DNA of 64,000 bases, taken from positions 1 to 64,000 of IMG/VR virus record IMGVR_UViG_3300045988_161046; one strand, written 5' to 3'. The translations under genes and the position numbers were made by a program. Below the pieces are notes generated by a model that saw only the letters and a list, made by a program, of their open reading frames with translations, ran no database searches and had not been told where the DNA came from. The DNA is from a virus. The first letter of the stretch is position 1. Every line of letters begins with the position of its first letter. This document shows positions 4,790-61,091 of this stretch, one piece after another.

Positions 4790-4828
4790 GACCGGCGATG
4801 GAATCGCCGGGAACGGGAGCGAGAGGGG
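4790..4828 (+). repeat. R1 hairpin element copy E1 (GACCGGCGATGGAATCGCCGGGAACGGGAGCGAGAGGGG)
   Basis: The stem is 8 bp with a 3-nt loop, followed by a G-rich tail. The stem carries a compensatory A>G/T>C pair relative to the consensus. It lies between the stop of 4829..5383 and the tape measure start. Confidence 0.85.
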
Positions 4829-5383
4829 TTACTCGTCTTTGCCTTCCAGGGCGTTCATTATCTGCAACAAGCCTTGATAGCCGTAGTAATCGGCAAGATG
4901 ATTTTCGTATCTCGTTTTCAGTCTGCGGACGGTTCGCATGATGGCAGGACGGTGAGATTTACCTGCCCTTCTATCCCACTTGCCGATATATCGGGTTTTG
5001 AACTTAGCTTTCTTCGAGCGGTCCACCTTATCGGCAGTGATATGGGCTGCAGGGTCACGAGGATCACCCGTCAAACCTACACCAATATCCACATAGCGGA
5101 GATAATCGTTATAGCGGATTCCTACCATCAGATTACCCGTCTTTTCATCAGCCTGATATACCGTACCCTCAAAGGATTTCTTACCTTCACCCGTAGAGTA
5201 CCACATGCCGTGTTCCTCGCGGTATTTGTTTACCTTCTCGTAGCCACGATATACTTCTACCGGATAAATCTTCTGGGTATTGAAGTTGACTTCTATATCA
5301 AGAAGAGCTTGTTTCAGATATACACCTGCCACCTCTTTCAGGGGCGCAAAAGGCGACTTGATAGGTTGGGTTCTGATAGGCAT
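4829..5383 (-). CDS. hypothetical protein (neighbour of the tape measure gene)
   Basis: Taken from the ORF track. It is tiled on the same strand as its neighbours. I recognised no motif. Confidence 0.6.
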   Translation of the reverse strand: MPIRTQPIKSPFAPLKEVAGVYLKQALLDIEVNFNTQKIYPVEVYRGYEKVNKYREEHGMWYSTGEGKKSFEGTVYQADEKTGNLMVGIRYNDYLRYVDIGVGLTGDPRDPAAHITADKVDRSKKAKFKTRYIGKWDRRAGKSHRPAIMRTVRRLKTRYENHLADYYGYQGLLQIMNALEGKDE

Positions 5384-5386
5384 GGC

Positions 5387-5989
5387 TTATCCCTCCTTTC
5401 CGTCTTCTGTCGATGCAGGAATGATATATTTCTGCTCTTTTTCGCATTGGAAATTATAGAGCGGACGGATGGTTTGCCAATAGCAATCGGCAAGAAGCCA
5501 GCTCGGTCCACGGAAGAGAGGGTTTACACCATAGGCGAAACTCTCTATATTAATGGATGATAACTCGATGCCCAACTTAGGCTCTTCCGTCTTGAAGTTT
5601 CTGCCCGTAATAGGACAGATACCTGTGCGGCGAAGCTGAGTGAGATAGGACGCAAGGTCTTCACAATACTCCATCAGATCATCCGATGCAGCCTGCAATT
5701 TGCTGCCATCATATCTGCCCAACGTAGCAGAGGAATCTTTCAGTCGGATAAGGAAGCAGACCTGATAGGTAATCAGGGCTTGCTTATCCGATTTCAGCTC
5801 TCCGGAGTTCACTACACGATAGAGCATACAGGGAGAGTGAATGATATTGGCGTTGCGGGAAAAGATATTTTCCTCGTCAATATCACGGATGCGGAAGAAA
5901 CTCTGTTCTTCCAGCTTCTTGCTTGTCGGGTTATGGGATAAGGGCTTGTAGATGGTTGCCCAGTGTTCCAAAACATTTGATACTGTCAT
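5387..5989 (-). CDS. hypothetical protein
   Basis: Taken from the ORF track, on the same strand as its neighbours. It is in frame with 4829..5383 across a single TAA. I recognised no motif. Confidence 0.6.
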   Translation of the reverse strand: MTVSNVLEHWATIYKPLSHNPTSKKLEEQSFFRIRDIDEENIFSRNANIIHSPCMLYRVVNSGELKSDKQALITYQVCFLIRLKDSSATLGRYDGSKLQAASDDLMEYCEDLASYLTQLRRTGICPITGRNFKTEEPKLGIELSSINIESFAYGVNPLFRGPSWLLADCYWQTIRPLYNFQCEKEQKYIIPASTEDGKEG

Positions 5990-6053
5990 AATTCAAAGGG
6001 GTTTTAACACATTATTAACTGATAGCGTACAGAAATTAAGAGATGTTGGCACA

Positions 6054-6668
6054 TTATATATCGTAATCGTCACCAGCCCCTTTCTGCGGAATCCATTCAT
6101 TATTATCAGATTCTTTGGGCTTGCCTGCATCATCTGCCTTATCCTTATCGCTCTTATCAGATGGAGTTTCTTCTTCCTCATCTTTCATCAAGTCTTTCAG
6201 CTTCACATTGAAGTGCCTTTCGGTTTTATCGGCTACAATCTTCTGCATCACTCTTGCCCAGGGTGCCCCATTACAGGTACTCTCGTTTTCGAGAATACTC
6301 ACGAGCTGCACGCCGCAATAAATAGCAGCAAGATAGTTGGCGAGATGGAGAGGATTCTGGAAATCGAGTATCACGGTATCTACCATCGTGGCCAGGAATA
6401 TCGCAAGGATGAGGACGGAGAAGTCCTTCACCATCTTTGCCATTTTCTTTGATTTCAGTTTGCCGTCGATTTTACATCGAGGGTCTTTCTTGATAGCCTC
6501 CCGATAGCGGGAATAGATGCGGCAGTTGCACCGCCACGCCGTATAGCAATCGCAAATGAGGGCGAAGAAACATACGGCGATGTAGTTAAGAGATGGTTCC
6601 AGCGTACACCACACCAAGCCGATGATGGCTGCAAGAAACCTGGTAAGGGTTGGAATTAAACTTTGCAT
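6054..6668 (-). CDS. holin-like multi-pass membrane protein with acidic C-terminal tail
   Basis: There are 3-4 hydrophobic segments. The motif VQLVSILENESTCNGAPW resembles the E..SIlEN....G.P signature of phage holin family 4. The family assignment is from memory only. Confidence 0.5.
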   Translation of the reverse strand: MQSLIPTLTRFLAAIIGLVWCTLEPSLNYIAVCFFALICDCYTAWRCNCRIYSRYREAIKKDPRCKIDGKLKSKKMAKMVKDFSVLILAIFLATMVDTVILDFQNPLHLANYLAAIYCGVQLVSILENESTCNGAPWARVMQKIVADKTERHFNVKLKDLMKDEEEETPSDKSDKDKADDAGKPKESDNNEWIPQKGAGDDYDI

Positions 6669-6714
6669 TTCTTTTTTCTTTTTAATGTTATCCTATGTTG
6701 TCTTAATACTATTG

Positions 6715-6722
6715 CAAAGGTA
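6715..6722 (-). promoter_or_regulatory. Bacteroidota-type -7 box TACCTTTG (read on the minus strand)
   Basis: It matches TAnnTTTG about 45 nt upstream of the ATG at 6668. The same octamer recurs at 12356, 40606 and 51025. Confidence 0.45.
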
Positions 6723-6929
6723 TCTGTTTTTTATTGAGAGGTGGGGACAAAAGGATTTTCTTGTCCCTATCGATTAGGGGCATTTTTGTAATTTTGCAAT
6801 CAAGATGTACGGATGGTAGATAGCCTTCCGGGGGGGCGGGGTTTTTGAACACGAATAAAACGAATAAAACGAATTTCGGTTTTCGATACCCCACCAAGTT
6901 AACATTTAACATTCAACATTCAAAAAGAG

Positions 6930-7935: not shown

Positions 7936-7968
7936 TTAATAATTTATAGTTAATAGTTTGTAAACTTT

Positions 7969-12092: not shown

Positions 12093-12118
12093 AGGTAAAA
12101 AGGTAAAAAGGTAAAAAA
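12093..12118 (+). repeat. R2 micro-array: three tandem GGTAAAAA units directly after the terL stop
   Basis: Read directly as taa AGGTAAAAAGGTAAAAAGGTAAAAAA. Confidence 0.9.
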
Positions 12119-22185: not shown

Positions 22186-22197
22186 ATTACTTACTTT

Positions 22198-22719
22198 TTA
22201 CCAGTGATGGACTAGCTGGGAACGGAAGCGTATACTTCGTAAATTACCCAAATTCAGCGCTGTTTCCAGCTTTTCGAACAACCGTTCTTCTTCTGATTTC
22301 TTTCGGAAGAAAGAAGAAGAATAGATGTTTTCCATTACTGAATAGAAGAAATTATGAGAGTTCCGGTATAGCTTAGTGTAGCTATCACGCAGTTGGAATG
22401 GGGTATGAGGAAGCGTGATAGGCAGCATAGACTTGCTGAATACCGGTAATACCGTTCTCGCCAACATCTGAGCTTCGTAGTGCGCTTCCCCTTCATCTAC
22501 CAACGTGAGGGGCACAATGAAACTGCGAGGTTTTTTCTCGCTCACTTCCTCCCCTACGATCCAATTACCGAAGTCAGAGACTGTACTGTCATCAACTATA
22601 GAAATTTTGTGCCACAGGGAAGGATTATCGAAATCTTCTTTCTTAAAGACGAAGACTTCTTTACCTAAACCAGCATATTCTTCTGTCGGTTCTTTCTTTG
22701 ATTCTTCTTTCTTTGCCAT
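22198..22719 (-). CDS. hypothetical protein
   Basis: Taken from the ORF track. Confidence 0.55.
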   Translation of the reverse strand: MAKKEESKKEPTEEYAGLGKEVFVFKKEDFDNPSLWHKISIVDDSTVSDFGNWIVGEEVSEKKPRSFIVPLTLVDEGEAHYEAQMLARTVLPVFSKSMLPITLPHTPFQLRDSYTKLYRNSHNFFYSVMENIYSSSFFRKKSEEERLFEKLETALNLGNLRSIRFRSQLVHHW

Positions 22720-23218: not shown

Positions 23219-23632
23219 CTATTCCTCCTCTTTAATACCAAATGGAGTGCCGTCTGCAAAGGTGTTGTCTTGGTAGCTGTTTTTTGATGCCAGCAAGATG
23301 GAGCTACCATCCGGATCTGCCAAGCCTGCATAGTCATCATCGACATAAACGATATTAAAATAACCTTTTTTACATTTTATCCACCCAAACGGTTGATGTT
23401 TTGACATCTCCTGCCAGCACTCTTTTGCATCCTTGAATGGACGGTACTTTGGTTCTGGCTTAATGCGGTAAAGGTAGGGGCACGATATGAGCATAGAAAT
23501 ATCTATTCCTTCCCCGTCAAAATCTATATCCTTCCAAACGGCTCCTTCATTCATTTGAATAGTCTTGCCTTCAACTATTTTCTGAAGCACAGGAATCGTC
23601 CTCAGGATTATTTCTTTGTTTATTGTCATCAT
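23219..23632 (-). CDS. hypothetical protein
   Basis: Taken from the ORF track. Confidence 0.55.
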   Translation of the reverse strand: MMTINKEIILRTIPVLQKIVEGKTIQMNEGAVWKDIDFDGEGIDISMLISCPYLYRIKPEPKYRPFKDAKECWQEMSKHQPFGWIKCKKGYFNIVYVDDDYAGLADPDGSSILLASKNSYQDNTFADGTPFGIKEEE

Positions 23633-23660
23633 ATTATCTTCTTTTTATTCTCTCCCTGCT

Positions 23661-23702
23661 GACCAGCGATAGAATCGCTGGGGGACGGAGGCGAGAGGTG
23701 GG
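23661..23702 (+). repeat. R1 hairpin element copy E2
   Basis: The sequence is GACCAGCGATAGAATCGCTGGGGGACGGAGGCGAGAGGTGGG. It lies immediately 3' of the stop of 23706..23963. Confidence 0.9.
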
Positions 23703-23705: not shown

Positions 23706-23963
23706 TTACTTCTTGACTTGGCAGGGGCAGGCGGCTGAATGAATGCAGCAGGTATGACCCTTGTCGGTTTCGAAGATGATGTACTCGTGACCTTTGGAGG
23801 TTACGGTGATACTGCTGCCTTTTATCCGGTCGCCTTCTCTGTAATCGGTAATGAGCGCATGAATAAGCAGATAGAGCATGCTAAACATAAAGAGTGTAAA
23901 TATCACATCTGAGGTCGTTGCTTTCAACTCATGAAAGAGTTTCTTTAACCTTGTTTTATCCAT
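23706..23963 (-). CDS. small membrane protein
   Basis: It has a transmembrane segment DVIFTLFMFSMLYLLIHALI and a C-terminal CCIHSAACPC. Confidence 0.5.
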   Translation of the reverse strand: MDKTRLKKLFHELKATTSDVIFTLFMFSMLYLLIHALITDYREGDRIKGSSITVTSKGHEYIIFETDKGHTCCIHSAACPCQVKK

Positions 23964-25330: not shown

Positions 25331-26410
25331 CTACTTATTGTAATCTACCACGATGTTGTACTTTGCGAGGACGGGTACCAGACCGGTCATTACACCTTTG
25401 CCTAAGAGAGGAACGGCATCTAATACGCTGTATGGGATAACCTTCTTCTTAGGAAGCTGTTCGCGGTTGGCTTCCTCTTCGAGTATTTTCTTGTAGGTTT
25501 CCAACTCCTTGTCGGCATCATCGCGCTCATCGAGAGCCTTCTTGTATTTGGCATTCAGCTCATCATATTGCTTCTGAGCCTCCTTAGCCTCCTGTTTCTG
25601 CTTGGCGATATAGTCACTGGCTTTGAGCATGGTGGAATTGGCTTCATCGGCTTCTTTTCGCAGGTCTGTTATTTCCTGCTGATGCTGGGCTTTCTGATCC
25701 TCTAACTGATGTTGCAAATCAGAGAGTTTCTGACGAAGGGCTTCTGTATCGGTAGCGGTGTGGATAAAATCGAACAGGCGCTCGATGTTCTGCTTTAACT
25801 GGGTGCAGGCTTCAGAAGTGGTACCGATAAGAGTTACGGCTTCCTCGGCGGTGAGGGTATAGCCTGACTTTGAACCAGCGATAAAATCGCTGGGAACGGA
25901 GGCGTTTTCGGCAGTGGCGGTGGCGGCTTTCTCGGCGGCGGCTTTTGCGGCTTCCTCTTCCTTGGCTTTCTTTTTCTCGGCTTTCTGCTGCTCTAACACG
26001 AAGGAGATAGCTGTGGGCATATCTTCCAGCTTATCGTAGTAATTATCTTCCTGCGCATCGAGAGCAAGACGGCCTTCGTATACCTCCCACAGATTGTTAT
26101 CTATGAGGTAATAGATGGCGGAGAGCACCGTGCGTTCGCCGTGCTCTTCGATGTAAGTATTGAGAGGAGCAACCCAGGCTTTCTCTACTACGTCCTTGAG
26201 CCATTCCTTATAGACTACACCCATCAGGGTCTTCTTATCGTTCTCATCGGCATAACAGGAAGCTATGCGGGGGATAACGTAGAGAGGTTCTGTCTTCTGC
26301 AGGAAGTTCTCGTAGTTGATACCGAGAGCCTGGCGAACCATATTGCTCACGCTTTTAAACTTATACTTCTTCAATAAAGCTCGAAGTATATTTTGCTGTT
26401 TATTGATCAT
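25331..26410 (-). CDS. hypothetical coiled-coil protein
   Basis: The central and C-terminal parts are K/E/A/Q-rich heptad-like sequence. It contains R1 copy E7 in frame. Confidence 0.6.
   Translation of the reverse strand: MINKQQNILRALLKKYKFKSVSNMVRQALGINYENFLQKTEPLYVIPRIASCYADENDKKTLMGVVYKEWLKDVVEKAWVAPLNTYIEEHGERTVLSAIYYLIDNNLWEVYEGRLALDAQEDNYYDKLEDMPTAISFVLEQQKAEKKKAKEEEAAKAAAEKAATATAENASVPSDFIAGSKSGYTLTAEEAVTLIGTTSEACTQLKQNIERLFDFIHTATDTEALRQKLSDLQHQLEDQKAQHQQEITDLRKEADEANSTMLKASDYIAKQKQEAKEAQKQYDELNAKYKKALDERDDADKELETYKKILEEEANREQLPKKKVIPYSVLDAVPLLGKGVMTGLVPVLAKYNIVVDYNK
25872..25904 (+). repeat. R1 hairpin element copy E7 (inside coding sequence)
   Basis: The sequence is GAACCAGCGATAAAATCGCTGGGAACGGAGGCG. 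It encodes ...ASVPSDFIAGS... on the minus strand. Confidence 0.85.
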
Positions 26411-31293: not shown

Positions 31294-31323
31294 TTTTGTT
31301 TATTCTTTACTTTTGTTATTACG

Positions 31324-31353
31324 GACCAGCGATGGAATCGCTGGGAACGGAGG
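31324..31353 (+). repeat. R1 hairpin element copy E3
   Basis: The sequence is GACCAGCGATGGAATCGCTGGGAACGGAGG. It abuts the stop of the SSB-like gene. Confidence 0.85.
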
Positions 31354-31950
31354 TTAGAACGGCAGATCGTCTTCGTTCGGCATATCTGGGTATCCCTGAC
31401 CGTCAGCTGGCGGTACATAGGCTGTGGCGTTTCCTGCAGAGCCATAGGCTTGCTGCGGATATGGCTGCTGATTAGCAGTTAACTGCGGCTGGAAGAGAGA
31501 GGCGATTCGCTTATTCATGCGGGTACGGATAGCCTTAAAGAGGTGGCTATTTTCATCGTTGAAGTCCTGGTTCACAATGTCAGGGTCTTTTTCTTTTCCA
31601 GCTTCCTTCACCTGCTCTACGAGCTTTGGGAATCTCTGGGCTACAGCCTTGACGTAATCAACCGAATAAGAAATCTTCATCTCGTGGGTAGGCACACTTT
31701 TGTTGGTGTCTCCACGCTCGGCGTTGCTCTGACGTATCTTATTCTTATACGCGTCATTGAAAGGGTCGATGATAACTCTCATCTTAGCCACCTGCTTACT
31801 TGCATCATTTTTAGATGCCTCTACTCTAATCTCGTTCACATCTAACGGAATGCAAACGTATGGACGTTGTGCATTCTTCTCGTCGAGACCAATCAGAACC
31901 TTCGCTCCGTTCAGGGAGAGAAGGTCAATATTACCGGAAAAACTTGCCAT
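31354..31950 (-). CDS. putative single-stranded DNA-binding protein (non-canonical N-terminal domain, SSB-like tail)
   Basis: It has a Q/P/G/Y-rich linker and an acidic tip ...NEDDLPF like the bacterial SSB C-terminus (DDDIPF). It lies between dnaN and the primase gene. Confidence 0.5.
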   Translation of the reverse strand: MASFSGNIDLLSLNGAKVLIGLDEKNAQRPYVCIPLDVNEIRVEASKNDASKQVAKMRVIIDPFNDAYKNKIRQSNAERGDTNKSVPTHEMKISYSVDYVKAVAQRFPKLVEQVKEAGKEKDPDIVNQDFNDENSHLFKAIRTRMNKRIASLFQPQLTANQQPYPQQAYGSAGNATAYVPPADGQGYPDMPNEDDLPF

Positions 31951-32025
31951 ATACTTATTATATTCTATAAAAATTCGATTTCTTTGTTTCTTCTTTCTTT
32001 GCCATTTTTGCTTTAACTTAAAGAT

Positions 32026-32065
32026 GACCAGCGATAGAATCGCTGGGAACGGAGACGCAAAGGGG
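32026..32065 (+). repeat. R1 hairpin element copy E4, followed by an inverted R2 tract (32066-32095)
   Basis: The sequence is GACCAGCGATAGAATCGCTGGGAACGGAGACGCAAAGGGG followed by ttaaggttctttttaccattttaccttta. Confidence 0.9.
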
Positions 32066-32091
32066 TTAAGGTTCTTTTTACCATTTTACCT

Positions 32092-35000: not shown

Positions 35001-35775
35001 CTTGCTGCATTGCCGGACGGAAAAAGCAGCCGCAGCTTCCCTGCGGGGCTATCACGTCTGTGGCGAAGCAGACGAACAGCGGATTCCAGGGCGTTCCGTA
35101 AATCACTTCACTTACCAGTTGCCCGTTTCTCACCACATTAGGCAGCGTTACCTGGTCCACGGCATAGATGCGGAAATCCTCGTTCAACATCTTGGTATTG
35201 AAGTCCTTTCCGAAGCCGTATTGCGGGATTCCCTTAACCGATGTGACTTCGCACCCCAGGGCTGCAAGCTCCTGGGGATTGAAATCTGTTTTTGGCATAA
35301 ATGAGAAAGTTTCTATCGTTTGTGGAGCGATTGTGCGATAATCCATCTTTGCAAAGAGCATCGGCCATTTGGCTCTCGTCTTCTCGTTGTCGCCATACAC
35401 CCTCACGATGAGGTCATGGCACAGACGCAGCAGACTGGCTCCGTGCATCGGCAGGTTGCGCATGGCGGCATAAAGCTCTAAGGCTCCATAGCCATACTTG
35501 CCGGTCTTGGTACACATCCAGCGCAGGGCACCATGCTCTGCCTTGGAATTGTCTTCCACCCCTACACCGTTATACATACCGCCTCGCTCATTATTGTAGA
35601 TAATGAGGTGAGGAGTCTGTTTTGCCTTGCCCTGCTCGCCATCGTCTGCCTCTTCCTTCTGGCAGAGCGGACAGAAACAGGCTGTCTGTCCCTCGATGCG
35701 CTGCTCATCGGCAGGTTTTACGAGGAATTGCATGTCGAGATTGGCAATCTGGTTCAATATAGGGTGAAATAACAT
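32092..35775 (-). CDS. large replication protein: putative primase fused to a P-loop NTPase (helicase-like)
   Basis: Its size is 1227 aa. The N-terminus has a CPLC zinc-ribbon-like motif. It has a Walker A QASGGSGKSMVV with a downstream acidic Walker B-like segment. It ends in DKDTLPF. Its position in the replication module supports the call, but the domain family is not verified. Confidence 0.55.
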   Translation of the reverse strand: MLFHPILNQIANLDMQFLVKPADEQRIEGQTACFCPLCQKEEADDGEQGKAKQTPHLIIYNNERGGMYNGVGVEDNSKAEHGALRWMCTKTGKYGYGALELYAAMRNLPMHGASLLRLCHDLIVRVYGDNEKTRAKWPMLFAKMDYRTIAPQTIETFSFMPKTDFNPQELAALGCEVTSVKGIPQYGFGKDFNTKMLNEDFRIYAVDQVTLPNVVRNGQLVSEVIYGTPWNPLFVCFATDVIAPQGSCGCFFRPAMQQDPIVFSTCEEHSVRKVSKWLMGDPVFVHAAENRTAENTAVYAAIKKYQPDEVYTEEKEIWVENETKDGEPKGTFHPEKKPIEVGDIKAQNIVFCRTPEDALSVYYAMQSLRKDKAGDKFFEKNSWYHVAFSIGRGYFWYIERGEWRQEKLDFSGVQYQKMKRFAERVIMIYPNDITSQRNCGAIATKFSDICYAMLPESFRVRYNQRWQWLYGCTPRSVRDYMLTYRMSDEDNFRFDHDIRLPLFSKLRGAKNTDPFDIEYPRDPRSGKQKPCTCKISPTKVWLFMTSHGYYRKIDPESNDLVGQFIHLDRCFVEYIDGKSIIQATKEKLLEFCEQSWRHNEQEQKLMSDCANLIDKNFSEKSAGGLQSIVIDFTEGYSENVEYFYFRNVALKITPEYITPISYDQCNFFIPATARKPYDFTMRHFDPPFIIKQSDEYTRRENEIAQKEAQKNEDGSPVFSIFEISQMKNDLREWGTVYRWDVDWRGKKDRELWPMLRILRGCSNVLWQEEMEADRSKHELSEEDKSIINAHFVNMVSGIGRVCYRDFSGTDSQSIPYLLEDQIEDEKQASGGSGKSMVVRVFVGSAVNVLNIDMKRFITTADARFSLGEIQHNPGMYRAIHWEDRPKSFPMDYFYVMATTGVTLECKGADIKTLSLKDSPLHIISSNFPYDGGVDSTAGRFPQIAFSNRFARENTLKRKMARSPGDILKGFNPDPEKLPDIARNQAIYITALAVQFMMRYHVVSKAPQLNLRRRNMISEITESCVRYFEFFFSREEVYGVPICADEMFNEFIRDWADASEGKSKEYSRATFKKKIHKYCESANIKCNPEHLFENVSDKQRNCFKMKAWVTQEYFVGREWENDNTIEPKFIRYIQTSKHVFFFYRPGKDTIPTDYKELKRIAKEFVENPDPLPYRDDEGHIVQLTTEEEERWNAYQKRKQGRFVAAQNAQNGSTAEATVEEIDKDTLPF

Positions 35776-36465: not shown

Positions 36466-36882
36466 TTATAAATTCAGAAATGTTTCCAGGCGATAATGCC
36501 TTATCTTGCAGTTACAGATGGTTTCCATGCGGTGTACTATCATCTGCGAGAGACTTTCCATCGTGAGGAATTCGGTATCTAGACCGATAATCTGCACCTC
36601 CTGCCTCCAATAGATCTTGCCGTTCTTGCGGCGGCAACTGTGCGAAGGCGTAATAATCATATCTTCCACACTGCCCGTCATCATCCTGCAAAGATACTCA
36701 CAGGTATCTTTTAGCAAGGCAAAGGGCGCATAGAAGAGGAGAGTCGGAATATCATCCTTCAGTCCGCTCATCGTCTCGGTATAGGCGAAACGATGCAGCA
36801 TTCTGTATCGTGATAGGTTCCTATGCCTCTTCTGTATGCCATTCCGGTTAGGGATATAGGGCAAATCAAACAGTCTTGGCAT
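36466..36882 (-). CDS. hypothetical protein
   Basis: Taken from the ORF track. Confidence 0.5.
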   Translation of the reverse strand: MPRLFDLPYIPNRNGIQKRHRNLSRYRMLHRFAYTETMSGLKDDIPTLLFYAPFALLKDTCEYLCRMMTGSVEDMIITPSHSCRRKNGKIYWRQEVQIIGLDTEFLTMESLSQMIVHRMETICNCKIRHYRLETFLNL

Positions 36883-37579
36883 AGCCTTCTCTTATCTTTT
36901 TCATCATCTGCCAGGTGGAGTAGATACTTCGCTTGCAGTCGAAAATCGGGTCATGCGCCGCACTTTCATCCGTAATGTCCTTATAGTCCGTAGTCAGGGC
37001 ATTAGCCTTGTCTAGGTCAAAAGGTTCTTCGTTTGGCTCGGCTGAATCCCATACGATTCTCGCAAGTTCAAGATAGAACGTGCGATGATCTCTCAGTTGG
37101 GTATGCTTAATCTGGAACTTGATGCACAGCTTGTAGCAGATATATCTCAAGATCGCCACATCGAAGTCAGTACCCTGCGCCCAAAGGCAAAGTTCTTCAT
37201 CACCGAGCTTCTTTTTAATATAGGCTATCCATCCGAACAGGTCGTTCACGACCACATCTATTGGCTGGCAGGGTGCCTCGTCGCTGTCATTGCCGAGCAA
37301 GGCAGCTTTTGCATCATCGCTCTGTTTGCTCCACCAGTCTGCCGTCGATTGATCGAAGGTGAAGCCATTCAGGAACATGCTCCTCAGGTCAATGTGAGCA
37401 GAGAATGTAGAGTTTCTTAACACACCATCACCATTCTCAAAGAATGGTGATTCTTTACCGTAGCGCTTCCACGCCACCGCGCCGATACTCATCACGGCAG
37501 CGGTGGGCGAAAGCGAACAGGTTTCTAAATCAACAGTTACATCTATCATATATGTAGTTACGATTTCTTGGCTTAACAT
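36866..37579 (-). CDS. DEDDh 3'-5' exonuclease (DnaQ-like)
   Basis: The Exo I motif is VTVDLETCS. The Exo II-like motif is WAQGTDFDVAILRY. The Exo III motif is AAHDPIFDC (H-x4-D). Confidence 0.7.
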   Translation of the reverse strand: MLSQEIVTTYMIDVTVDLETCSLSPTAAVMSIGAVAWKRYGKESPFFENGDGVLRNSTFSAHIDLRSMFLNGFTFDQSTADWWSKQSDDAKAALLGNDSDEAPCQPIDVVVNDLFGWIAYIKKKLGDEELCLWAQGTDFDVAILRYICYKLCIKFQIKHTQLRDHRTFYLELARIVWDSAEPNEEPFDLDKANALTTDYKDITDESAAHDPIFDCKRSIYSTWQMMKKIREGYAKTV

Positions 37580-38070
37580 TCAACATTGAACGCTTCTAAA
37601 AGCGTTCTGATTCCTTCCTTCTCCCATGGCTTCCAGTCGTCAGCGGTGAAACGCTTGATGATGGTGGTACGACTCATGCCCCGCTCCTCCATAAAGGCAA
37701 AGAACTTCATGCAGAGGCCATTGTTGGCTTTCTTCAGACAGGTGTAGAACACACCAGGCTCATCACTCTTGGCAAGTTCTGCCAGATAGCCTTTCTTACC
37801 TATCTCGTTGCCCAGCGCATCGGTTTCAACATACTCAGCCAATAGCTTACCTACTTCCGGTATAGCTAAAAACTGATTTTTGCAGTCGTTTATGCCCTGA
37901 ATCTCCCAGCCGTCGAAACCTTTCTGGAAGAAACGGAGATAAAATGTAGAAATAGTGAAGCCCTTAACTGATAAAAACTCAGCTAAATTCTTCTTTTCCT
38001 CCACCGAAATATCATTTACCTCTAATGGAGTGTTTTTTCTACATATTTTTTCTATAAATTCCTTTGTCAT
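37573..38070 (-). CDS. hypothetical protein (start trimmed to MTKEFIEK)
   Basis: The ORF track gives 37573..38127. A -7 box at 38097-38104 lies inside the longer version. The protein ends in ...NVEC, encoded by an R3 TGTTGAA tract. Confidence 0.5.
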   Translation of the reverse strand: MTKEFIEKICRKNTPLEVNDISVEEKKNLAEFLSVKGFTISTFYLRFFQKGFDGWEIQGINDCKNQFLAIPEVGKLLAEYVETDALGNEIGKKGYLAELAKSDEPGVFYTCLKKANNGLCMKFFAFMEERGMSRTTIIKRFTADDWKPWEKEGIRTLLEAFNVEC

Positions 38071-38240: not shown

Positions 38241-38930
38241 ATGAAGTACTTTTATAATTACAGCTTCCTCGACAAGTGGATGGAAGCAAATAGGAAAATC
38301 ACCAATAGAGAAATTATGAAGGCTATGGGTACCACGAGCAATGCGTGCCTGGATAGCTGGATAAGAATGAAGTCTCCACTGCCTACCATCTCCCTGCTGC
38401 GCTTCTGCAATGCGTTTCATGTGCCGCTGTCGGCTTTTATTGTAGATGCGGATAAAGACCAACAAGGCAGTGAAGGATGCTGCGGTGCGGGGTATGTATG
38501 CCCTGGTATAGATGACCAGTTTGAGCCGGATGGGGGATATATAGATAATGATGAGAAGCGCAAACAGGGGACGAGGGCGCTGCGCAATCCCCTCGATGTG
38601 GAGAGGATGGAGTCGGTGGTACCTGGGTGGACCAGCGTTGGAAACGCTGGGAACGGAGGCGCAAAGGGACACAAGACAAGAGAAGAGGATAAGGAGGCTG
38701 CTGCTGCACCTATGAATGCTGCTGCGCCTACCCCGATGGCAGAAAAAGCTGCAAACGCAGAACCGGACATCAGCCTAAAGACCCTTAACCGCATGCTCGA
38801 TATTATTGCTGAACAGCAGAAACAGATAGGCGATCAGCAAAAGCTCATCAGCGAACTCACCCACCGTCTGGAATCTCAGCAGCCTAGCTACAACATGGTA
38901 GCAGAAGAGATACATCGTAACGAGGAATAA
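38241..38930 (+). CDS. HTH (XRE-like) DNA-binding protein with low-complexity linker and C-terminal coiled coil
   Basis: The HTH-like segment is ITNREIMKAMGTTSNACLDSWIRMKSPLPTISLLRFCNAFHVPLSAF. It is a plus-strand gene divergent from 37573..38070. It contains R1 copy E8 in frame. Confidence 0.5.
   Translation: MKYFYNYSFLDKWMEANRKITNREIMKAMGTTSNACLDSWIRMKSPLPTISLLRFCNAFHVPLSAFIVDADKDQQGSEGCCGAGYVCPGIDDQFEPDGGYIDNDEKRKQGTRALRNPLDVERMESVVPGWTSVGNAGNGGAKGHKTREEDKEAAAAPMNAAAPTPMAEKAANAEPDISLKTLNRMLDIIAEQQKQIGDQQKLISELTHRLESQQPSYNMVAEEIHRNEE
38631..38669 (+). repeat. R1 hairpin element copy E8 (inside a plus-strand coding sequence)
   Basis: The sequence is GACCAGCGTTGGAAACGCTGGGAACGGAGGCGCAAAGGG. 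The stem carries a compensatory AT>TT / AT>AA change. Confidence 0.85.
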
Positions 38931-40613: not shown

Positions 40614-40723
40614 AGAAAAAAAAGGGTTTATGGTTGGGACAAACAAATAAAGGTAAAAAAGTAAAAAGGTAAAAAAGTAAAAAAGCCTAGCGGGATAATG
40701 GCTTGCTTTTTACCTTTTTACCT

Positions 40724-43670: not shown

Positions 43671-43759
43671 AATCTTAAAAGTATTAATTCTTTTATATAT
43701 ATTAATGTATTCATTTCTTTGTTGAAAGAAAGAAAGCTATATTTTTTTCTTTCAATAAA

Positions 43760-44100
43760 CACACTAACGCATCCACACATAAATACACATTTGTGCTTTT
43801 CTGCTTTTGTGGAAACATGCTTTTGTGTTTTAATGCCGCAAAGTTAAGATTTTAATTTTAAACCGCCAAATGTTTTTAATATTTTTAATGCTTTTATGTA
43901 TGGATTGATGTATTGAAAGGAATAAACTAACAAATCAATCAAGAAATAAACCAATGAACGAACAAAGAAACAAACAAATGAAGAAACAAAGAAAGAAATT
44001 AATCAATAAATACACAAACACATAAATACATAAACACATAAACGTGTGTTTATGTATGCTTTTATGTATTTGCGTTTTTATGCTTTTCTGTTTTTTACCT
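43760..44100. repeat. repeat-rich AT-rich region upstream of parA (candidate centromere/operator)
   Basis: There are multiple RTGCTTTTNTG boxes at about 43792, 43800, 43817, 43889, 44055 and 44079. Arrays of ACATAAA/TTTATGT heptads form an imperfect palindrome centred near 44043. A -7 box TAACTTTG (minus strand) lies at 43839-43846. Confidence 0.6.
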
Positions 44101-44253
44101 TCTCATTTATCTTCTCAAAAGGAAAGGAAAAAGAAAACGTACCAAAGTATCGAAGTACGATAGTACTAAAGTGCTTTGGTACGTTTTCTTTTTCAGTGTT
44201 GAATGTTGAGTGTTAAATGTTGAATTTGGCTAGCGCCCTTGAGCCTGGTGGGG

Positions 44254-44290
44254 GACCAGCGATAGAATCGCTGGGGACGGGGGCGATAGG
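44254..44290 (+). repeat. R1 hairpin element copy E5, bracketed by inverted R3 TGTTGAA tracts (44196-44232 and 44313-44343)
   Basis: The sequence is GACCAGCGATAGAATCGCTGGGGACGGGGGCGATAGG. Confidence 0.9.
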
Positions 44291-44342
44291 AAGAAACGCA
44301 ACCCCGATAGACTAATTCAACATTCAACACTCAACATTGAAA

Positions 44343-45335
44343 TCAAAACTCCACCACGCTCTGTTCTTCCTCCCACGCATCATTGAGTGATACCGAAATG
44401 GTGGAATGGTGATTATAGTAAGAGCCGCTTACTACCGTAACATGGTTGCGCTGCAAACTGATGTTCGATAGCTTAAACGAGGTGTAAGGCTCGGTGCTGC
44501 CCTTGCGGTTCATGGTGAAGGTGATGTCCGTAGTATAGCCATCCTTCGGCACCAGGAAATAGTAGAAGAGGGAAGAGGAGGTTTTGCCGGCATATCTCGT
44601 AACGTCAGCGATACGCAGGTTTGATACCTTGCCGGTGGCGGCAAAGGTCTGCCAGTCCCATTGTTTATATTCATCGAGCTGTAACTGCAGGGTACTGCAA
44701 TCTTCCGGATATGTTCCGGTGTTCTTTACCGTCAGTTTCGCTACGATACGTTCCAGTTGGATATTGATACTCTGGTTCTGACCGACGCTTATACTCACGT
44801 CCTGCACTGCGCCGAAGCTGTCAGAGTTCTTCGTGCTCGTAAGCACAGCAGGAAGGACACCATCGGCAGACACCGAAAAGGCAGTATTATCTGCCAGACT
44901 CCATAACGAGCCATCAGCAGAGAGTAGGGTAGGGGTTTCGCTTCTCGTAGCTATCACCTTCAGCGTATGATTGCCGTAATCGAGACTCAGGGATGGCTCT
45001 GCAAAATCCTCGGCATCGGCAGTCTGGTGCAACACCTGGAGCAGTTTGCCGCTTGCCTTGTCGTAATCGAAGATGTAGAGGTCGGTCATCGCCTTGCCGT
45101 TGGCAGCAAGCTCGGCACGCGTGATAGGGTAGGCGATCCGTCGGCACTGGCTCACGCTCACGTCACCGCCTTCTGGCGAAGTAAACCGCAGTCTTACCAT
45201 AGTCTTGCCCGTCATAGGCCGGCTGCCTCCGTTCTCTACTGCATCTTCCACATACTCGGTGCATGAGGTATTCATCATCATGCACGCTGCCATCATCGCA
45301 AAGGTGGTGGCAAACAAAAACTTCTTAGTTCTCAT
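44343..45335 (-). CDS. lipoprotein, beta-rich (fimbrillin-like fold is only a guess)
   Basis: It has a signal peptide and a Cys, MRTKKFLFATTFAMMAACMMMNTSC, followed by acidic residues. Confidence 0.6.
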   Translation of the reverse strand: MRTKKFLFATTFAMMAACMMMNTSCTEYVEDAVENGGSRPMTGKTMVRLRFTSPEGGDVSVSQCRRIAYPITRAELAANGKAMTDLYIFDYDKASGKLLQVLHQTADAEDFAEPSLSLDYGNHTLKVIATRSETPTLLSADGSLWSLADNTAFSVSADGVLPAVLTSTKNSDSFGAVQDVSISVGQNQSINIQLERIVAKLTVKNTGTYPEDCSTLQLQLDEYKQWDWQTFAATGKVSNLRIADVTRYAGKTSSSLFYYFLVPKDGYTTDITFTMNRKGSTEPYTSFKLSNISLQRNHVTVVSGSYYNHHSTISVSLNDAWEEEQSVVEF

Positions 45336-51182: not shown

Positions 51183-51225
51183 TTGCCAGCCGTGGCAGCG
51201 ATAAGCAAAGGCAAGGTGGTTAAGG
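51183..51225 (+). repeat. degenerate R1-like element (E9) followed by an inverted R2 tract (51226-51256)
   Basis: The sequence is ttGCCAGCCGTGGCAGCGATAAGCAAAGGCAAGGTGGTTAAGG. Its tail matches those of E4/E6, but the hairpin differs (TGCCA/TGGCA). Confidence 0.6.
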
Positions 51226-51260
51226 CTTTTTTACCTTTTTACCCTTTTACCTTTAAAAAT

Positions 51261-57050: not shown

Positions 57051-57229
57051 ATAATAAAATATTGAACCGCCAAATATTTTGCAAAGAAAATACTTAAAAG
57101 ATAGTATTTTTAACCTTTATTTGCAATAACATGATAGTATCTTTACAAAATAAATACTATTATATGGTTACAAACAAATAATAGCTATTATATTATATTA
57201 TTATATATACCTTATTATATATAGAGAAA

Positions 57230-57700
57230 GAACAAAAGCAAGAAGAAGGGAAGGAAGAGAGAGAACCAGGGCGAAGGATGCCGCCGCCATCTTCGCCCGT
57301 TCCTCGCCTCTCTTCCTGTTCTGTCTGCTGCCCCACCGTCCACACCATCGCCAGCGCTCACCCTCTCGCCACGTCGCACAAGCAGCCAGGGCGAGAGGAA
57401 GGGCGAGCACCTCGTCCGGTTCTGGGCGATACCATCGCCACACCTCGCCACACCTCGCCACCGATTGACCAGCAGCCACAGGGCAGCGCCTCGACGGTCT
57501 GCCATCCTGCCCGCCTCGTCCCCGCCTCTCTTCCAATCCGTCAGATGGTGAGGGTAGGGCAGCGAGCCAGCCAGGGCGGCGATCCTCTCCAGCTCACCCC
57601 GTCGACCCTCTCGCCCGTCCTCGGCAATGTGGAGGGCATATTACAGGGACGACAAAAAGAGGTTAGAGGGGGAAGCTAACCAGTGTGGCGGCGCAGTCTT
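57230..57700. other. GC-rich, C-skewed (plus-strand) island with no credible coding frame; dense GGCGAG/CAGGGCG boxes and hairpins
   Basis: Its composition is clearly different from the flanking AT-rich DNA. Three mutually overlapping low-complexity ORFs cover it. There is a tandem cacctcgcca x2 and imperfect hairpins at about 57254-57318 and 57363-57399. Confidence 0.7.
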
Positions 57701-57903: not shown

Positions 57904-57998
57904 CTTTTGCCATTACAGGGCGAATCGAAACCGCACGCCTATACCCAGGGCGATGCCCTGGGCTAGGAGCTTCTGCCACTTCAGGGCGTGCAGCTTGA
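57904..57998 (-). repeat. REP-like element, copy B (inverted relative to 46369-46463)
   Basis: By-eye alignment of its reverse complement shows two well-conserved arms flanking a divergent ~18-nt core. Confidence 0.85.
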
Positions 57999-58049
57999 AA
58001 TAGCCAATGCTTCCATGGCGTGCGGCTTATATTCTTCCTATTCTGCCGA

Positions 58050-58808: not shown

Positions 58809-58836
58809 AATCTTAATCTTTTTAAAAGGTGAAACT

Positions 58837-59025
58837 TCATGCTTGCACAAAAGTGGAGCGCAAACACGCAAAAAGAATACTCAAGCCCATATTATAGGAT
58901 ATGGACTGTTCTTGACTCATGCTCCCAGTATCGGGTGGTGCAGTGGCAAGCTGCTCGATTACTGCCGTGGCTGCCTCCTGGAGGTCAGCTTTACCCATTG
59001 GTAGGGTAATGGTTGTTTCTTTCAT
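58837..59025 (-). CDS. hypothetical small protein, first ORF of the leftward operon
   Basis: Taken from the ORF track. Confidence 0.4.
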   Translation of the reverse strand: MKETTITLPMGKADLQEAATAVIEQLATAPPDTGSMSQEQSISYNMGLSILFACLRSTFVQA

Positions 59026-59274
59026 TCTACATTACTAATTTTAATCAGACATTGGTACACATATTTATATATAAAAAGAGGCAGTGTGCCCTTAACCCCT
59101 TGTCTAATGACATAAAACGCTCGAATGTAGGAAAGAGCTTGCCACGATAGCGACATTACATCGCAATCAGGGGAGTTCACACTGCCATATATGTATACGC
59201 AGCCTCTGTATCAGAGACACATCACGTGCTTCGATACTTCCCACATTTCCGAATTTTTATTTTTTTAGACGGTG

Positions 59275-59282
59275 CAAAGATA
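59275..59282 (-). promoter_or_regulatory. -7 box TATCTTTG (minus strand)
   Basis: It matches TAnnTTTG. It would produce a roughly 245-nt leader containing the 59080-59186 hairpin. Confidence 0.4.
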
Positions 59283-59377
59283 AGGAGATTTATCGAAACT
59301 ACCAAACTTTTTCCAAGAAAATTCCATTTTATAAGTAATTTTTCGCCAAAAAACTTGCGTAAATCAATATTTTGTTA

Positions 59378-59385
59378 TACTTTTG
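59378..59385 (+). promoter_or_regulatory. -7 box TACTTTTG (plus strand) upstream of the XRE gene
   Basis: It lies about 32 nt upstream of the ATG at 59417. Confidence 0.45.
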
Positions 59386-59416
59386 CATCCGAACAATAAT
59401 ATATCAGATAAAGATT

Positions 59417-60082
59417 ATGAAGAAACTGGATATAAAAAGAGCCTTGCGTGAACATCACATGACGCAGGTTGAACTTTGCAAGAGAACCGGATTGCTTACT
59501 CAGAACATGAGTCCGATCATAAACGGCAATCCTACCATCTCTAAACTCTTCCAAGTAGCCGAAGGCATCGGCTGCGACATCACCGACCTCTTCTATCCCG
59601 ACCCTGCGGAAGAAGCAGAGGAGAGAGACAAGGCACTCGAAAACGCAAAGAATAGCAAGATGCCGCTGGAACTTATTCTGCGTGACCTGACAAGAAGAGC
59701 CTATCCTAGCATCACGAAAGAGGAAATGGAGGAATGGATGGATGTCATCAGAAATAAGAATATGGTTCCTTGGTTTGATATAAATCCAAGCCAAATGGGT
59801 CTGCAGAATGCGATGGATAAGCTAAGACAATTCGAAGAGGCTAGAAAGAAGCATGAGGGCGAAACTCTGAACGAAACGCTGCGGGGCGATTTGCCGGAAG
59901 GTATCATCAGCAGAGATGTGAAGTTTGTGCAGCAGGGAGCAGGGAGCGAGCCATCCTATCAGGTTCACGAAAACGGACTGGAATCAGAAAACCAGCAGCA
60001 AATAATTCAGACTTCCACCTTCTGCCCTCACTGCGGCAAGAAAGTAAGGGTAGGAGTGGTATTATTAAATGTTGAATGTTGA
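59417..60082 (+). CDS. XRE/Cro-CI-family HTH transcriptional regulator (repressor candidate) with C-terminal CxxC
   Basis: It carries MTQVELCKRTGLLTQNMSPIINGNPTISKLFQVAEGIGCDITDLF. It is divergent from the leftward operon. The start is trimmed from the track value 59372 to MKKLDIK. Confidence 0.7.
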   Translation: MKKLDIKRALREHHMTQVELCKRTGLLTQNMSPIINGNPTISKLFQVAEGIGCDITDLFYPDPAEEAEERDKALENAKNSKMPLELILRDLTRRAYPSITKEEMEEWMDVIRNKNMVPWFDINPSQMGLQNAMDKLRQFEEARKKHEGETLNETLRGDLPEGIISRDVKFVQQGAGSEPSYQVHENGLESENQQQIIQTSTFCPHCGKKVRVGVVLLNVEC

Positions 60083-60122
60083 GTGTTGAATGTTGAATGA
60101 TTTAAACAAAAATTAGAAGAAT

Positions 60123-60974
60123 ATGAAAAAGAATTTTTTATCTATGATGAAACGTTCCATGATGGCTATCTGCACAGTGGTGGCCATGGGAATAATTACG
60201 GCTTCGCTGGCGGCTTGCAGCAGCAGCGAGGACGAGAGCGAGAGCGAGAAGAATGCGGCTAAGGTGAAGGAATATCTTGCCGGAAATGAGTGGACCATCA
60301 ACAGCACCAGCGGTACTTATTCTTACTACAAGAACCACATGGTTTACTATGAGGGCGAAGGAAGCTGGTCATCGGGCGGTCTCTTCGGAGAGCCTAACAC
60401 AGCCTTCGGCTACTGGCAGATGGATGGCGACAGGCTTACTACCCGCTTCGAGGTAGGTACTCCCGAAAGCTTCAATATCAAGAATCTGCTGAACGAGACG
60501 ATTTCGGGCGTGCATCTGCAGGAGAGCAACAAGCTTACGGGAAGCAGGGTATCGGTAAGCATCGATATGAGACCGCTGATTGTGGGTACCTTCGCCAACG
60601 GCAATGAATGCCAGATGAGATGCGGCAATACGCTGAATGATATTTCGGATGAGACGAGCCATGATGCGGCGCTGCGGGGTACCTGGTATTGCATCGTAAC
60701 GATTACAAAGGACGGAAAGAAGAGGGGTTGCATGGGGTCCATGACGTTTAATGAGGATGGCACCATGCACATGGTGATAGAGGGTGAGAAGGACTTCACT
60801 ACCACCTATTCTACGAAGAACGGAAAGGTTACTATCAATGGTTATCTGGTAAAGGATCATGTAGCTACCTTCTATTATACGAACCTTAACGGTATAGAGA
60901 TTAAGCTGTATAGCTGCGAGAACGGCTATCTTTCGTCTATATGGTTTAAAAATAGGGAAGACGCGAAGCGATAA
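60123..60974 (+). CDS. surface-lipoprotein candidate
   Basis: The signal peptide and lipobox ...ITASLAAC are followed by SSSEDESESE. This acidic stretch resembles the Bacteroidota lipoprotein export signal. Confidence 0.65.
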   Translation: MKKNFLSMMKRSMMAICTVVAMGIITASLAACSSSEDESESEKNAAKVKEYLAGNEWTINSTSGTYSYYKNHMVYYEGEGSWSSGGLFGEPNTAFGYWQMDGDRLTTRFEVGTPESFNIKNLLNETISGVHLQESNKLTGSRVSVSIDMRPLIVGTFANGNECQMRCGNTLNDISDETSHDAALRGTWYCIVTITKDGKKRGCMGSMTFNEDGTMHMVIEGEKDFTTTYSTKNGKVTINGYLVKDHVATFYYTNLNGIEIKLYSCENGYLSSIWFKNREDAKR

Positions 60975-61007
60975 AGGTAAAAAAGTAAAAAGGTAAAAAG
61001 GTAAAAA

Positions 61008-61042
61008 GAGCCTAGCGGGAGATAGGGACTCCTGCTAGGCTC
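61008..61042. terminator. bidirectional terminator hairpin (13-bp stem GAGCCTAGCGGGA/TCCTGCTAGGCTC) flanked by inverted GGTAAAAA arrays
   Basis: It lies between convergent genes. The upstream flank is A-rich and the downstream flank is T-rich. The R2 arrays lie at 60974-61008 and 61097-61137. Confidence 0.7.
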
Positions 61043-61053
61043 TTTTCTTTTAG

Positions 61054-61091
61054 GACCAGCGATAGAATCGCTGGGGACGGAGGCAAGGGGG
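61054..61091 (+). repeat. R1 hairpin element copy E6
   Basis: The sequence is GACCAGCGATAGAATCGCTGGGGACGGAGGCAAGGGGG. Confidence 0.9.

Follow-up and report, generated by a model that had tools for sequence, protein, structure and literature searches.

REP elements lie 3' of ORFs in unidirectional or convergent spacers, form inverted dimers and are also found inside genes, and families tagged with CGTC are present in Bacteroidetes (Di Nocera et al. 2013, PMC3733652). The element described here is a hairpin dispersed along the window, the whole stretch of 64,000 nucleotides of viral DNA that was analysed. Like the REP, BIME and REPIN families of Proteobacteria, including those tagged with CGTC, it consists of a palindrome of 20–40 bp, one end of which carries a short conserved tag. 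It is likewise dispersed downstream of ORFs, is rarer between divergent genes, forms inverted doublets, has occasional translated copies inside genes and shows strain-to-strain turnover. However, its loop is 3 nt long compared to 4–5 nt in the published CGTC-tagged families, and its tag reads CGTY rather than a fixed CGTC. It further differs from REP/BIME/REPIN in its small number of host sites (~30), its strongly gene-sense orientation and in having a phage-like replicon as its densest carrier, and we know of no transposase that accompanies it, a cognate RAYT (Y1) enzyme being one hallmark of REP elements. The element is best read as a REP-type repeat and not as a new kind of system; its sequence family is new.

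Three other classes of element invite comparison. The PeSL (promoter-early stem-loop) cassettes of T4-type phages and the lambdoid 'boundary sequences' are specific to phages and include a promoter. The present element resembles them as a short repeated regulatory or hairpin unit between phage genes, at module break-points, but it is shared with the chromosome of the host and shows no evident promoter. As with the Rickettsia palindromic elements (RPE) and intragenic REPs, in-frame copies are tolerated in protein-coding genes, although RPEs are 100–150 bp in length and the in-gene copies here lie at linkers. The GC-rich hairpin after a stop codon also recalls Rho-independent terminators, but lacks their U-tract.

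The carrier, a gut phage, is a ~100-kb phage-like replicon of Segatella (Prevotella) copri with leftward operons. Among its gene products are a holin, a weak terminase-like protein, ParA, a primase-helicase (the largest protein in the window) and a DnaN clamp. The eight strong copies, all on one strand, lie at 4790, 23661, 25873, 31324, 32026, 38630, 44254 and 61054, and each scores 56–62 bits when the window is scanned with a covariance model of the element. A preliminary description had reported eight copies in a single orientation; both the pattern and the covariance model bear this out, and two of its coordinates (now 25873 and 38630) were off by one. On the plus strand the copies share the pattern GACCAGCGAT-RRA-ATCGCTGG-GRACGGRGGCG, with zero matches expected by chance. 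Read in gene sense, the conserved unit of ~45 nt consists of a C-rich tag (..CGCCYCCGTYC), an 8-bp stem CCAGCGAT, a 3-nt loop and ATCGCTGG, followed by TC. REP elements have a conserved terminal tetranucleotide, GTAG or CGTC; here the tag ends in CGTC directly before the stem region in 3/8 window copies and some host copies, and in CGTT in most copies. In all eight window copies, TC and then variable sequence follow the stem.

In each of the sequence contexts that were folded, this hairpin predominates. In an alignment of 75 distinct sequences the stem positions are paired in 98.2% of cases, and double changes occur at two of the eight stem pairs, with compensatory AU>UA and AU>GC replacements in 8 cells versus 0.5 in shuffles. 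Covariation proposed from two window copies thus holds in the larger alignment, and selection on the stem, or its maintenance, is modestly supported. Compensatory stems had been noted in two copies, and both are real, at 4790 and 38630; the second, labelled 'E8', is however the sixth copy. Single-arm mismatches do not tell which RNA strand is functional, since G-U pairs are about equally frequent in either sense. The primary sequence is conserved far beyond what pairing alone requires, which points to recognition by a sequence-specific protein, one that could just as well bind DNA.

Read with the tag first, all copies in the window are on the minus strand, and most follow a stop codon. The first (4786..4830, 59.1 bits) carries the stem variant CCGGCGAT/ATCGCCGG and lies 2 nt past the stop of 4829-5383, with the next ATG ~38 nt downstream. 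The second (23657..23702) lies between the stop of 23706-23963, 7 nt away, and the ATG of 23219-23632, 28 nt downstream. In the fourth (31320..31364) the stop of 31354-31950 falls within the C-rich tail, and the DnaN-like clamp gene begins with an ATG 30 nt further downstream. The fifth (32022..32091) has a host-type leader, composed of a GGTAAAA-type tract and AACCTTAACCCC, and follows the stop of the primase-helicase gene 32092-35775. The seventh (44250-44294, within 44190..44343) is nested midway between two inverted units of a second repeat (GTTGAATGTTGAGTGTT...), in non-coding DNA upstream of ParA. The eighth (61050..61131) has a (GGTAAAAA)4 leader, follows the stop of 61142-61618 and is succeeded by a canonical bidirectional terminator common to the convergent gene 60123-60974. 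Six copies had been placed immediately 3' of stop codons. This is accurate for 4790, 23661 and 31324; the other three lie 29–52 nt from the stop, and at 32026 and 61054 the gap is filled by (GGTAAAAA)n tracts.

The remaining two copies are in frame within coding sequence, as had been proposed. The third (25869..25913) is in sense (..VPSDFIAG..) in a linker of the 359-aa ORF 25331-26410, and the sixth (38626..38670), with the stem variant CCAGCGTT/AACGCTGG, is antisense in a linker of the plus-strand HTH-like gene 38241-38930. A decayed ninth copy, absent from the preliminary description, was recovered by the covariance model at 22195..22239 in the same orientation (CCGTTCC-CAGCTAGT-CCA-TCACTGG; 18.8 bits, E=6e-4). 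It has been absorbed into the last codons of 22198-22719, and the stop directly follows the hairpin remnant. In contrast, the degenerate copy suggested at 51183 forms no hairpin and has E>10 in the covariance model; this remnant (51183..51251) retains only the leader, (GGTAAAAG)n-AGCCTTAACC, with an ATCGCTG fragment. Nor is the GGCGAGAGG island at 57.2–57.7 kb, previously described as related, the same element, because it consists of three 9-mers on both strands with no hairpin.

Several known identities were considered and rejected. No curated Rfam covariance model matched at the gathering threshold over the whole window, and no relevant match appeared at E<=5 around two copies, so that membership of an Rfam family is rejected. 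An intrinsic terminator is rejected since no U-tract follows the hairpin, as had been pointed out; in a lenient terminator scan of the 22–40 kb stretch only one of six copies, that at 32026, passes. A solitary CRISPR repeat does not fit the host matches, which are single or paired at gene ends and never in regularly spaced arrays. MITEs are units of 70–300 bp with terminal inverted repeats and a target-site duplication. The present unit, conserved over ~45 nt, has no terminal inverted repeats apart from its stem, nor was a clear target-site duplication seen on comparing filled with empty sites, and this identity is rejected.

The element is not private to the phage but is shared with the chromosome of S. 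copri. Hairpin and tag are dispersed over ~34 distinct chromosomal sites in the genomes sampled, at least nine of the loci being in the closed chromosome of HDD04. An exact-pattern scan of bacterial genomes returned at least 120 loci, and among the matches listed nearly all are in S. copri or Prevotella chromosomes and MAGs. A host genome thus carries copies by the tens instead of the hundreds, and ~30 sites is few by the standard of classical REP families. At least two copies are present in 12 of 113 host clusters; those inspected proved to be inverted pairs spaced by 60–90 bp, in several cases around a palindromic centre. The window has no such doublet. The (GGTAAAAA)n-AGCCTTAACC leader also accompanies host copies. 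Among viruses, more than 118 loci were found, most in contigs of 87–110 kb, and ~40 related viral contigs of 90–110 kb carry the element. Site density in this phage family is ~1 per 8–8.7 kb versus roughly 1 per 129 kb for host loci, a ~15-fold difference. Of the three roles offered in the preliminary description, a REP-like element fits this dispersal best.

The orientation of the copies was counted with orthologous sites collapsed to one, unidirectional sites being the informative ones. The element is in sense with the upstream gene at 21 of 21 viral sites (21 versus 0 antisense) and at 18 of 21 host sites (18 versus 3). Host spacers comprise 21 unidirectional, 7 convergent and 3 divergent examples, and viral spacers 21, 7 and 5, respectively. 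Stop codon and hairpin are separated by a median of 33 nt at viral loci and 65 nt at host loci, and hairpin and next ATG by ~45 nt. Polarity thus goes with transcription, and it is mostly the leftward operons that give the window its uniform orientation.

A polarity relative to replication or packaging had been suggested instead and is not supported. It would be expected if the element were a signal at the DNA level, a single-stranded hairpin and tag for a strand-specific enzyme or binding protein, for instance an HUH/Y1 (RAYT-like) transposase, a relaxase- or Rep-like nickase, or a primosome or gyrase-type factor. A hairpin beside a conserved unpaired flank is the usual form of an HUH substrate (PMC3733652), and conservation of the sequence, rather than of pairing alone, would suit such a factor. 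The turnover of sites between relatives and the purine-rich RGA loop on the strand that templates leftward transcription are also in keeping with it, as is strict co-orientation within contigs (144:0 across 26 contigs), which includes a conserved copy antisense to its local gene. However, orientation goes with the adjacent gene at those 18 of 21 host sites, and copies of either orientation are present in the first half of the HDD04 chromosome, with the origin assumed at coordinate 1. No transposase, relaxase or Rep-like protein was found among ~40 window proteins scanned, and filled and empty sites show no evident target-site duplication. We regard a DNA-level signal as unlikely.

A non-canonical transcription stop or attenuator, either Rho-dependent via the leader or a roadblock formed by the template-strand hairpin and its G-rich tract, would account for the placement directly after stop codons, the C-rich, G-poor RNA leader and the avoidance of divergent spacers. 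However, the next gene begins 20–45 nt past the hairpin at most phage and many host sites, leaving no room for a promoter of its own, so that a strong stop would silence it. Three host sites have no start site between hairpin and downstream gene, one copy lies in sense inside an ORF, and many host copies precede a canonical terminator. A dedicated stop signal is accordingly very improbable. The canonical S. copri-type terminators, GC hairpins flanked by (GGTAAAAA)n/(TTTTTACC)n, are separate from the element in phage and host.

The 3-nt loop on the template strand and an ATG 20–40 nt downstream also recall a promoter, whether recognized by the host or, as in N4, by a phage RNA polymerase. N4-type promoters initiate just downstream of a hairpin with a 5–7-bp stem and 3-nt loop and are used by a dedicated virion RNA polymerase. 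Published dRNA-seq of HDD04 places a primary start site 20 nt after the hairpin at one host copy, but none downstream of the other three of four testable copies, and a general promoter is rejected on this basis. The N4-type promoter is rejected on the same result together with the 8-bp stem and the lack of any RNA polymerase gene found in the window. In addition, the copy at 61054 is directed towards a terminator and a convergent gene, copies also occur within ORFs and, by the dozen, at chromosomal gene ends, and no S. copri-type -7 or -33 boxes are present. A promoter is thus extremely improbable.

The reading we prefer, and hold to have about an even chance of being correct, is a REP-type repeat of the S. 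copri complex that is transcribed as a hairpin at cistron 3' ends and serves incidentally as a recombination joint. By analogy, the most likely putative function is in RNA stability or processing. The element would be transcribed within leftward polycistronic mRNAs, where the hairpin, like those of enterobacterial REPs, could form a barrier to 3'-to-5' exonucleases and/or modulate termination and translation where the upstream cistron ends. A host factor recognizing the conserved sequence might then set the relative stability of operon segments. At the DNA level, identical units of 30–45 bp could act as recombination joints between phage modules and between phage and host. A strong 3'-end signal sits uneasily with the sense copy in the 359-aa ORF and the antisense copy in the HTH gene.

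Both in-gene copies are maintained across relatives. That at 38630 is kept in 42/42 orthologues (63–98% protein identity), with compensatory variants, and that at 25873 in 37/37 (72–97%). At 38630 the mean column conservation score is 0.91 versus 0.66–0.76 for the adjoining linker. In-frame copies are confined to linkers and C-terminal tails; some were taken up by ORFs at domain linkers, and in at least one case an intergenic copy seems to have been incorporated by ORF read-through or fusion. Sites of the element are acquired, lost and exchanged between relatives.

A selfish or neutral repeat would spread by recombination or insertion into tolerant 3' spacers and persist by hitch-hiking and gene conversion, its sole real effect being a patch of homology for module exchange. 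The restriction of in-frame copies to linkers and tails would be expected of such a repeat, as would the nesting of one copy in another palindrome, and compensatory change can be imitated when palindromes are repaired by template switching. Site turnover fits it as well, with at least seven sites filled in relatives and empty in the window, and the element alternates with the second repeat family at the same spacers. Against this stand the ~15-fold greater density in phage, the strict sense orientation relative to genes, and the retention of the two in-gene copies in every orthologue while the flanking linker diverges. We consider a purely selfish or neutral repeat doubtful.

In a more ambitious version, the hairpin and tag would be the recognition site of a new sequence-specific factor of S. 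copri or the phage, either a nuclease of HUH type or a protein that binds or processes RNA. The ~100-kb phage-plasmid family would then be the main reservoir and vector, using the element to punctuate long leftward operons and to exchange modules through a portable joint, and seeding host copies. This is a decidedly unlikely reading; if true, it would amount to a phage-driven REP system in Bacteroidota, in a carrier family that is highly prevalent.

Copies mark homology breakpoints. Within 40 nt of a copy lie 41 of 338 internal homology end-points, an enrichment that fits a selfish or neutral repeat but is not specific to the element, because intergenic spacers are break-point hot spots generally. 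In one pair (L316/L317), homology ends exactly at the 3' end of the 25873 hairpin, and a different gene follows 32 nt later.

The element consists of a hairpin with an 8-bp stem, a 3-nt loop and a C-rich tag. A search of the window with its 21-nt core (up to 3 mismatches) returned exactly eight matches, starting at 4790, 23661, 25873, 31324, 32026, 38630, 44254 and 61054. All are on the plus strand and shuffles predict none, in agreement with the eight clear copies in one orientation of the preliminary description. Approximately 45 nt are common to the aligned copies. In the direction of the neighbouring genes (minus strand), these read ..CTCTCGCCTCCGTYC-CCAGCGAT-TYY-ATCGCTGG-TC. When the eight copies are made into a covariance model they score 56–62 bits, and a decayed extra copy in the same orientation emerges at 22195–22239 (18.8 bits). 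The degenerate copy previously placed at 51183 is not detected by this model; all that remains there is the (GGTAAAAG)n-AGCCTTAACC leader and a fragment reading ATCGCTG. An island of GGCGAGAGG at 57.2–57.7 kb had also been linked to the element. It consists of three 9-mers, found on both strands and without a hairpin, and is rejected as unrelated. This C/T-rich region (57148–57700) contains 23-nt direct repeats 218 nt apart (57294 and 57512), again unrelated to the hairpin element, as well as an AT-rich repeat pair (57148/57176) and overlapping ORFs on both strands.

The stem was analysed in 75 distinct sequences from 79 loci, which were fetched by protein homology and therefore not selected on the element. 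In these sequences 98.2% of stem cells are paired. Two of the eight stem pairs show double changes (AU to UA five times, AU to GC twice), and there are 8 compensatory cells compared with 0.5 in shuffles; none of 500 shuffles reached the count of 8. The covariation first noted between window copies is also present in a larger alignment. Most positions are invariant, which indicates conservation of the sequence itself as well as of the fold. In both senses the hairpin dominates the predicted folding, and the G-U wobbles, considered as a guide to the functional RNA strand, are few and balanced between senses. A strand-specific recognition site in the DNA itself is a rival reading to a transcribed hairpin, and we consider it unlikely. 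Two copies lie within genes, one in sense in a 359-aa ORF (25873 copy, ORF 25331–26410) and one antisense in a plus-strand HTH-like gene (38630 copy, gene 38241–38930). Both are kept in every orthologue (37 of 37 and 42 of 42, respectively), and in the HTH-like gene mean column conservation is 0.91 for the element versus 0.66–0.76 for the adjoining linker.

Several loci are available from each of 26 related viral contigs, and all 144 copies on these agree in orientation within their contig. When orthologous sites are collapsed by flank similarity, the viral sites comprise 21 in sense, none antisense, 7 convergent and 5 divergent. The corresponding host sites comprise 18 in sense to both neighbours, 3 antisense, 7 convergent and 3 divergent. 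The two orientations coexist in the first half of the closed Segatella copri chromosome HDD04 (NZ_CP152484.1), with the GACC-sense on the minus strand at 0.335 Mb and on the plus strand at 0.612 Mb. The polarity of the element is tied to genes, not to the replicon, and gene direction in the window is mostly leftward from ~12 to 57 kb. The window copies are therefore uniform in orientation mainly because its operons run leftward. Only the 38630 copy departs from this, lying in a rightward gene surrounded by leftward ones. The earlier observation that all copies share one strand stands; a polarity relative to replication or packaging, offered there as one speculative role, is not supported, given the 18 sense to 3 antisense sites in the host.

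One genome per bacterial species was scanned for the exact pattern, which gave at least 120 loci; among the matches listed, almost all are in chromosomes and MAGs of the Segatella (Prevotella) copri complex. The HDD04 chromosome contains at least nine loci, which are spread out, and its copies include those at 335,023(+), 612,464(-), 1,784,846(-), 1,831,011(+), 1,943,609(-), 2,169,441(+) and 3,855,270(+). In gene sense, the fuller host composite consists of a stop codon, (GGTAAAAA)n, AGCCTTAACCCCTTTGCGCCCCCGTTCC, the hairpin and TCCCC, followed either by the ATG of the next gene at 23–77 nt or by a canonical GC-hairpin terminator with A/T-tract flanks. About one tenth of the host sites listed are inverted doublets with a palindromic centre, which resemble REPINs. 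In L163 (HDD04 1,128,001–1,136,000), and also in loci L153, L179, L183 and L200, the REP is nested between inverted AATGTTGAATGTTAAATG-type repeats. This architecture is much like that around 44254 in the window, and suggests either a related integrated element or a shared host site architecture. In a further locus (L274, ~3027–3071) one hairpin arm is partly duplicated in tandem (..ATCGCTGGGCAGAATGCGATTCTATCGCTGG..), so that the element has been locally rearranged there. S. copri-type terminators ordinarily have (GGTAAAAA)n/(TTTTTACC)n tracts on their flanks, and such tracts are present in the window as well. Because the element and these tracts are common to the replicon and S. copri chromosomes, the host of the replicon is judged from sequence to be the S. 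copri complex. A 99,185-bp contig filed as an 'S. copri MAG' carries the element, and one viral contig is equally long. The replicon has approximately one site per 8.7 kb compared with roughly one per 129 kb in the host (~15-fold), a rough estimate since it rests on six extra clusters in 775 kb.

The element matches no family in an Rfam search, and literature searches returned no earlier description of it in S. copri. The REP catalogue of Di Nocera et al. (PMC3733652) comprises small palindromes with a terminal tag, and its CGTC-type families occur in Bacteroidetes. The element resembles these REPs in its sites downstream of ORFs, between unidirectional or convergent genes, and in its inverted dimers, occasional intragenic copies and strain variation. 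Based on this match it is placed among REP-like elements, as a new family in the S. copri complex. Of the earlier proposal of a REP-like element with replication or packaging polarity, the first part is consistent with the catalogue and the second is not supported, the polarity being tied to genes. Neither the sequence family nor its occurrence on a phage-like replicon that is prevalent in the gut appears to have been described before. Elements of this kind are already known, and no new mechanism seems to be revealed. From position and polarity, we give about even chances to a new REP-like S. copri-complex family, also present on a phage-like replicon, that is a transcribed hairpin at the 3' ends of cistrons. 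Such a hairpin would block exonucleases, or would modulate termination or translation where the upstream cistron stops, and REP units would double as recombination joints. The value of these observations is moderate. The shared signature links the S. copri complex with a ~100-kb viral or extrachromosomal family that is abundant in the human gut yet lacks annotation, which is useful for host prediction. A REP-like family is also recorded for a phylum in which hardly any have been described. Unusually, a mobile replicon is enriched in a host repeat whose polarity is strictly in sense, some of whose copies are translated and conserved, and at which modules join. The 8–12 copies on one replicon offer a compact, tractable system for the role of REP hairpins in Bacteroidota, whether in mRNA stabilisation, in attenuation or as a recombination joint.

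No U-tract follows the stem in any copy, and a lenient T-tail test is passed by only one of six copies in the scanned 22–40 kb stretch. A classical terminator is rejected, as the preliminary description had already held. Canonical bidirectional terminators flanked by (GGTAAAAA)n/(TTTTTACC)n octamer tracts occur in the window at 12094–12118, 40652–40722 and 60976–61045, and their style is the same as that of the terminators on S. copri chromosomes. These host-type terminators serve the replicon separately from the REP, and that the hairpin is itself a non-canonical terminator or attenuator seems very improbable. A solitary CRISPR-type repeat is also rejected; the host copies are solitary at gene ends. 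Promoter function was checked against the dRNA-seq data that El Mouali et al. (bioRxiv 10.1101/2024.04.05.588293) tabulate for HDD04, with coordinates matched to NZ_CP152484.1 by two CDSs. Three of the four copies checked (335,023, 612,464 and 1,943,609) have no start site downstream, and a general promoter is rejected. For a variant copy (L236, 1,831,011–1,831,055), whose stem CAAGCGAT/ATCGCTTG is compensatory, the published data place a primary start site 20 nt past the hairpin. This site precedes the ATG by 7 nt and lacks a recognisable -7 box; it reflects either RNA processing or a promoter peculiar to this copy. A promoter is the least probable of the readings considered for the element, with hardly any weight given to it. 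None of the sRNAs listed for HDD04 in the same study overlaps a copy.

The occupied sites differ among relatives of the replicon, and at least seven positions are filled in relatives and empty in the window (~27.2, 35.8, 37.57, 39.63, 40.7, 58.8 and 60.1 kb in window coordinates). The 39.63-kb spacer has several forms, with only (GGTAAAAA)n in the window and some relatives, an extra REP and ~95 nt of AT-rich sequence in others, and a different palindromic repeat instead in one. This repeat belongs to a second family, of GTTGAATGTTGAGTGTT-type units, with which the REP alternates among relatives at 37.57 kb as well. An inverted pair of these units (44190–44228 and 44326–44343) forms a large palindrome around the 44254 REP copy, and others are found at 60063–60101, 37575–37592 and 6908–6925, and at ~2850–3150 of locus L246. 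This second family may be another small mobile or regulatory cassette. A neutral, selfish repeat has to be set both beside this turnover and beside the retention of the in-gene copies in all orthologues, and we regard it as rather doubtful. In two loci (L316 and L317) homology to the 359-aa gene runs up to the 3' base of the hairpin and no further. The ORF ends 8 codons past it, and an unrelated gene begins 32 nt downstream. The in-frame 25873 copy therefore appears to have stood between cistrons before it came to lie in the linker between two modules. C-terminal tails likewise hold the decayed copy at 22195–22239 and the 27.2-kb copy of relatives. Homology end-points fall near copies in 41 of 338 cases (12% versus 1.6%), an enrichment that is only suggestive because spacers without copies are equally hot.

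The relatives of the replicon are IMG/VR contigs of 87–110 kb. Queries of INPHARED and PLSDB with the DNA, the element and a 1227-aa protein identified no annotated relative, the sole matches being two of ~100 nt each in unannotated faecal contigs. PDB sequence searches with the 1227-aa and 584-aa proteins gave no match, nor did a tRNA/tmRNA search. The window encodes a DnaN-like clamp, ParA, DNA methyltransferases, a holin, a Cro/C1-type HTH protein and, by a weak match, a terminase-like protein. Its largest ORF is the 1227-aa primase-helicase, and a phage RNA polymerase is rejected; the ~40 window proteins scanned include no RNA polymerase, transposase or HUH enzyme. We take the replicon to be a phage or phage-plasmid that is uncultivated. 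The ORF at 36866–37579 (minus strand) carries an Rv2179c-like 3'-5' exoribonuclease (DEDD) domain (E=3e-24). Its product may act as a proofreading exonuclease, or as an RNase with a bearing on transcripts protected by 3' hairpins. Upstream of ParA, inside a ~670-nt gap to the next gene, ~520 nt of AT-rich non-coding sequence (43671–44190) hold AAACAAAGAAAC-type repeats and a palindrome with 15-bp arms, GAAAACGTACCAAAG...CTTTGGTACGTTTTC (44133–44188). This region is probably a partition or replication site. Single copies of the element also occur, often near the contig end, in viral contigs of 56–63 kb (e.g. L002, L015, L023, L034, L055, L065, L067 and L093), which may be fragments of the ~100-kb family or a second S. 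copri phage family holding the element.
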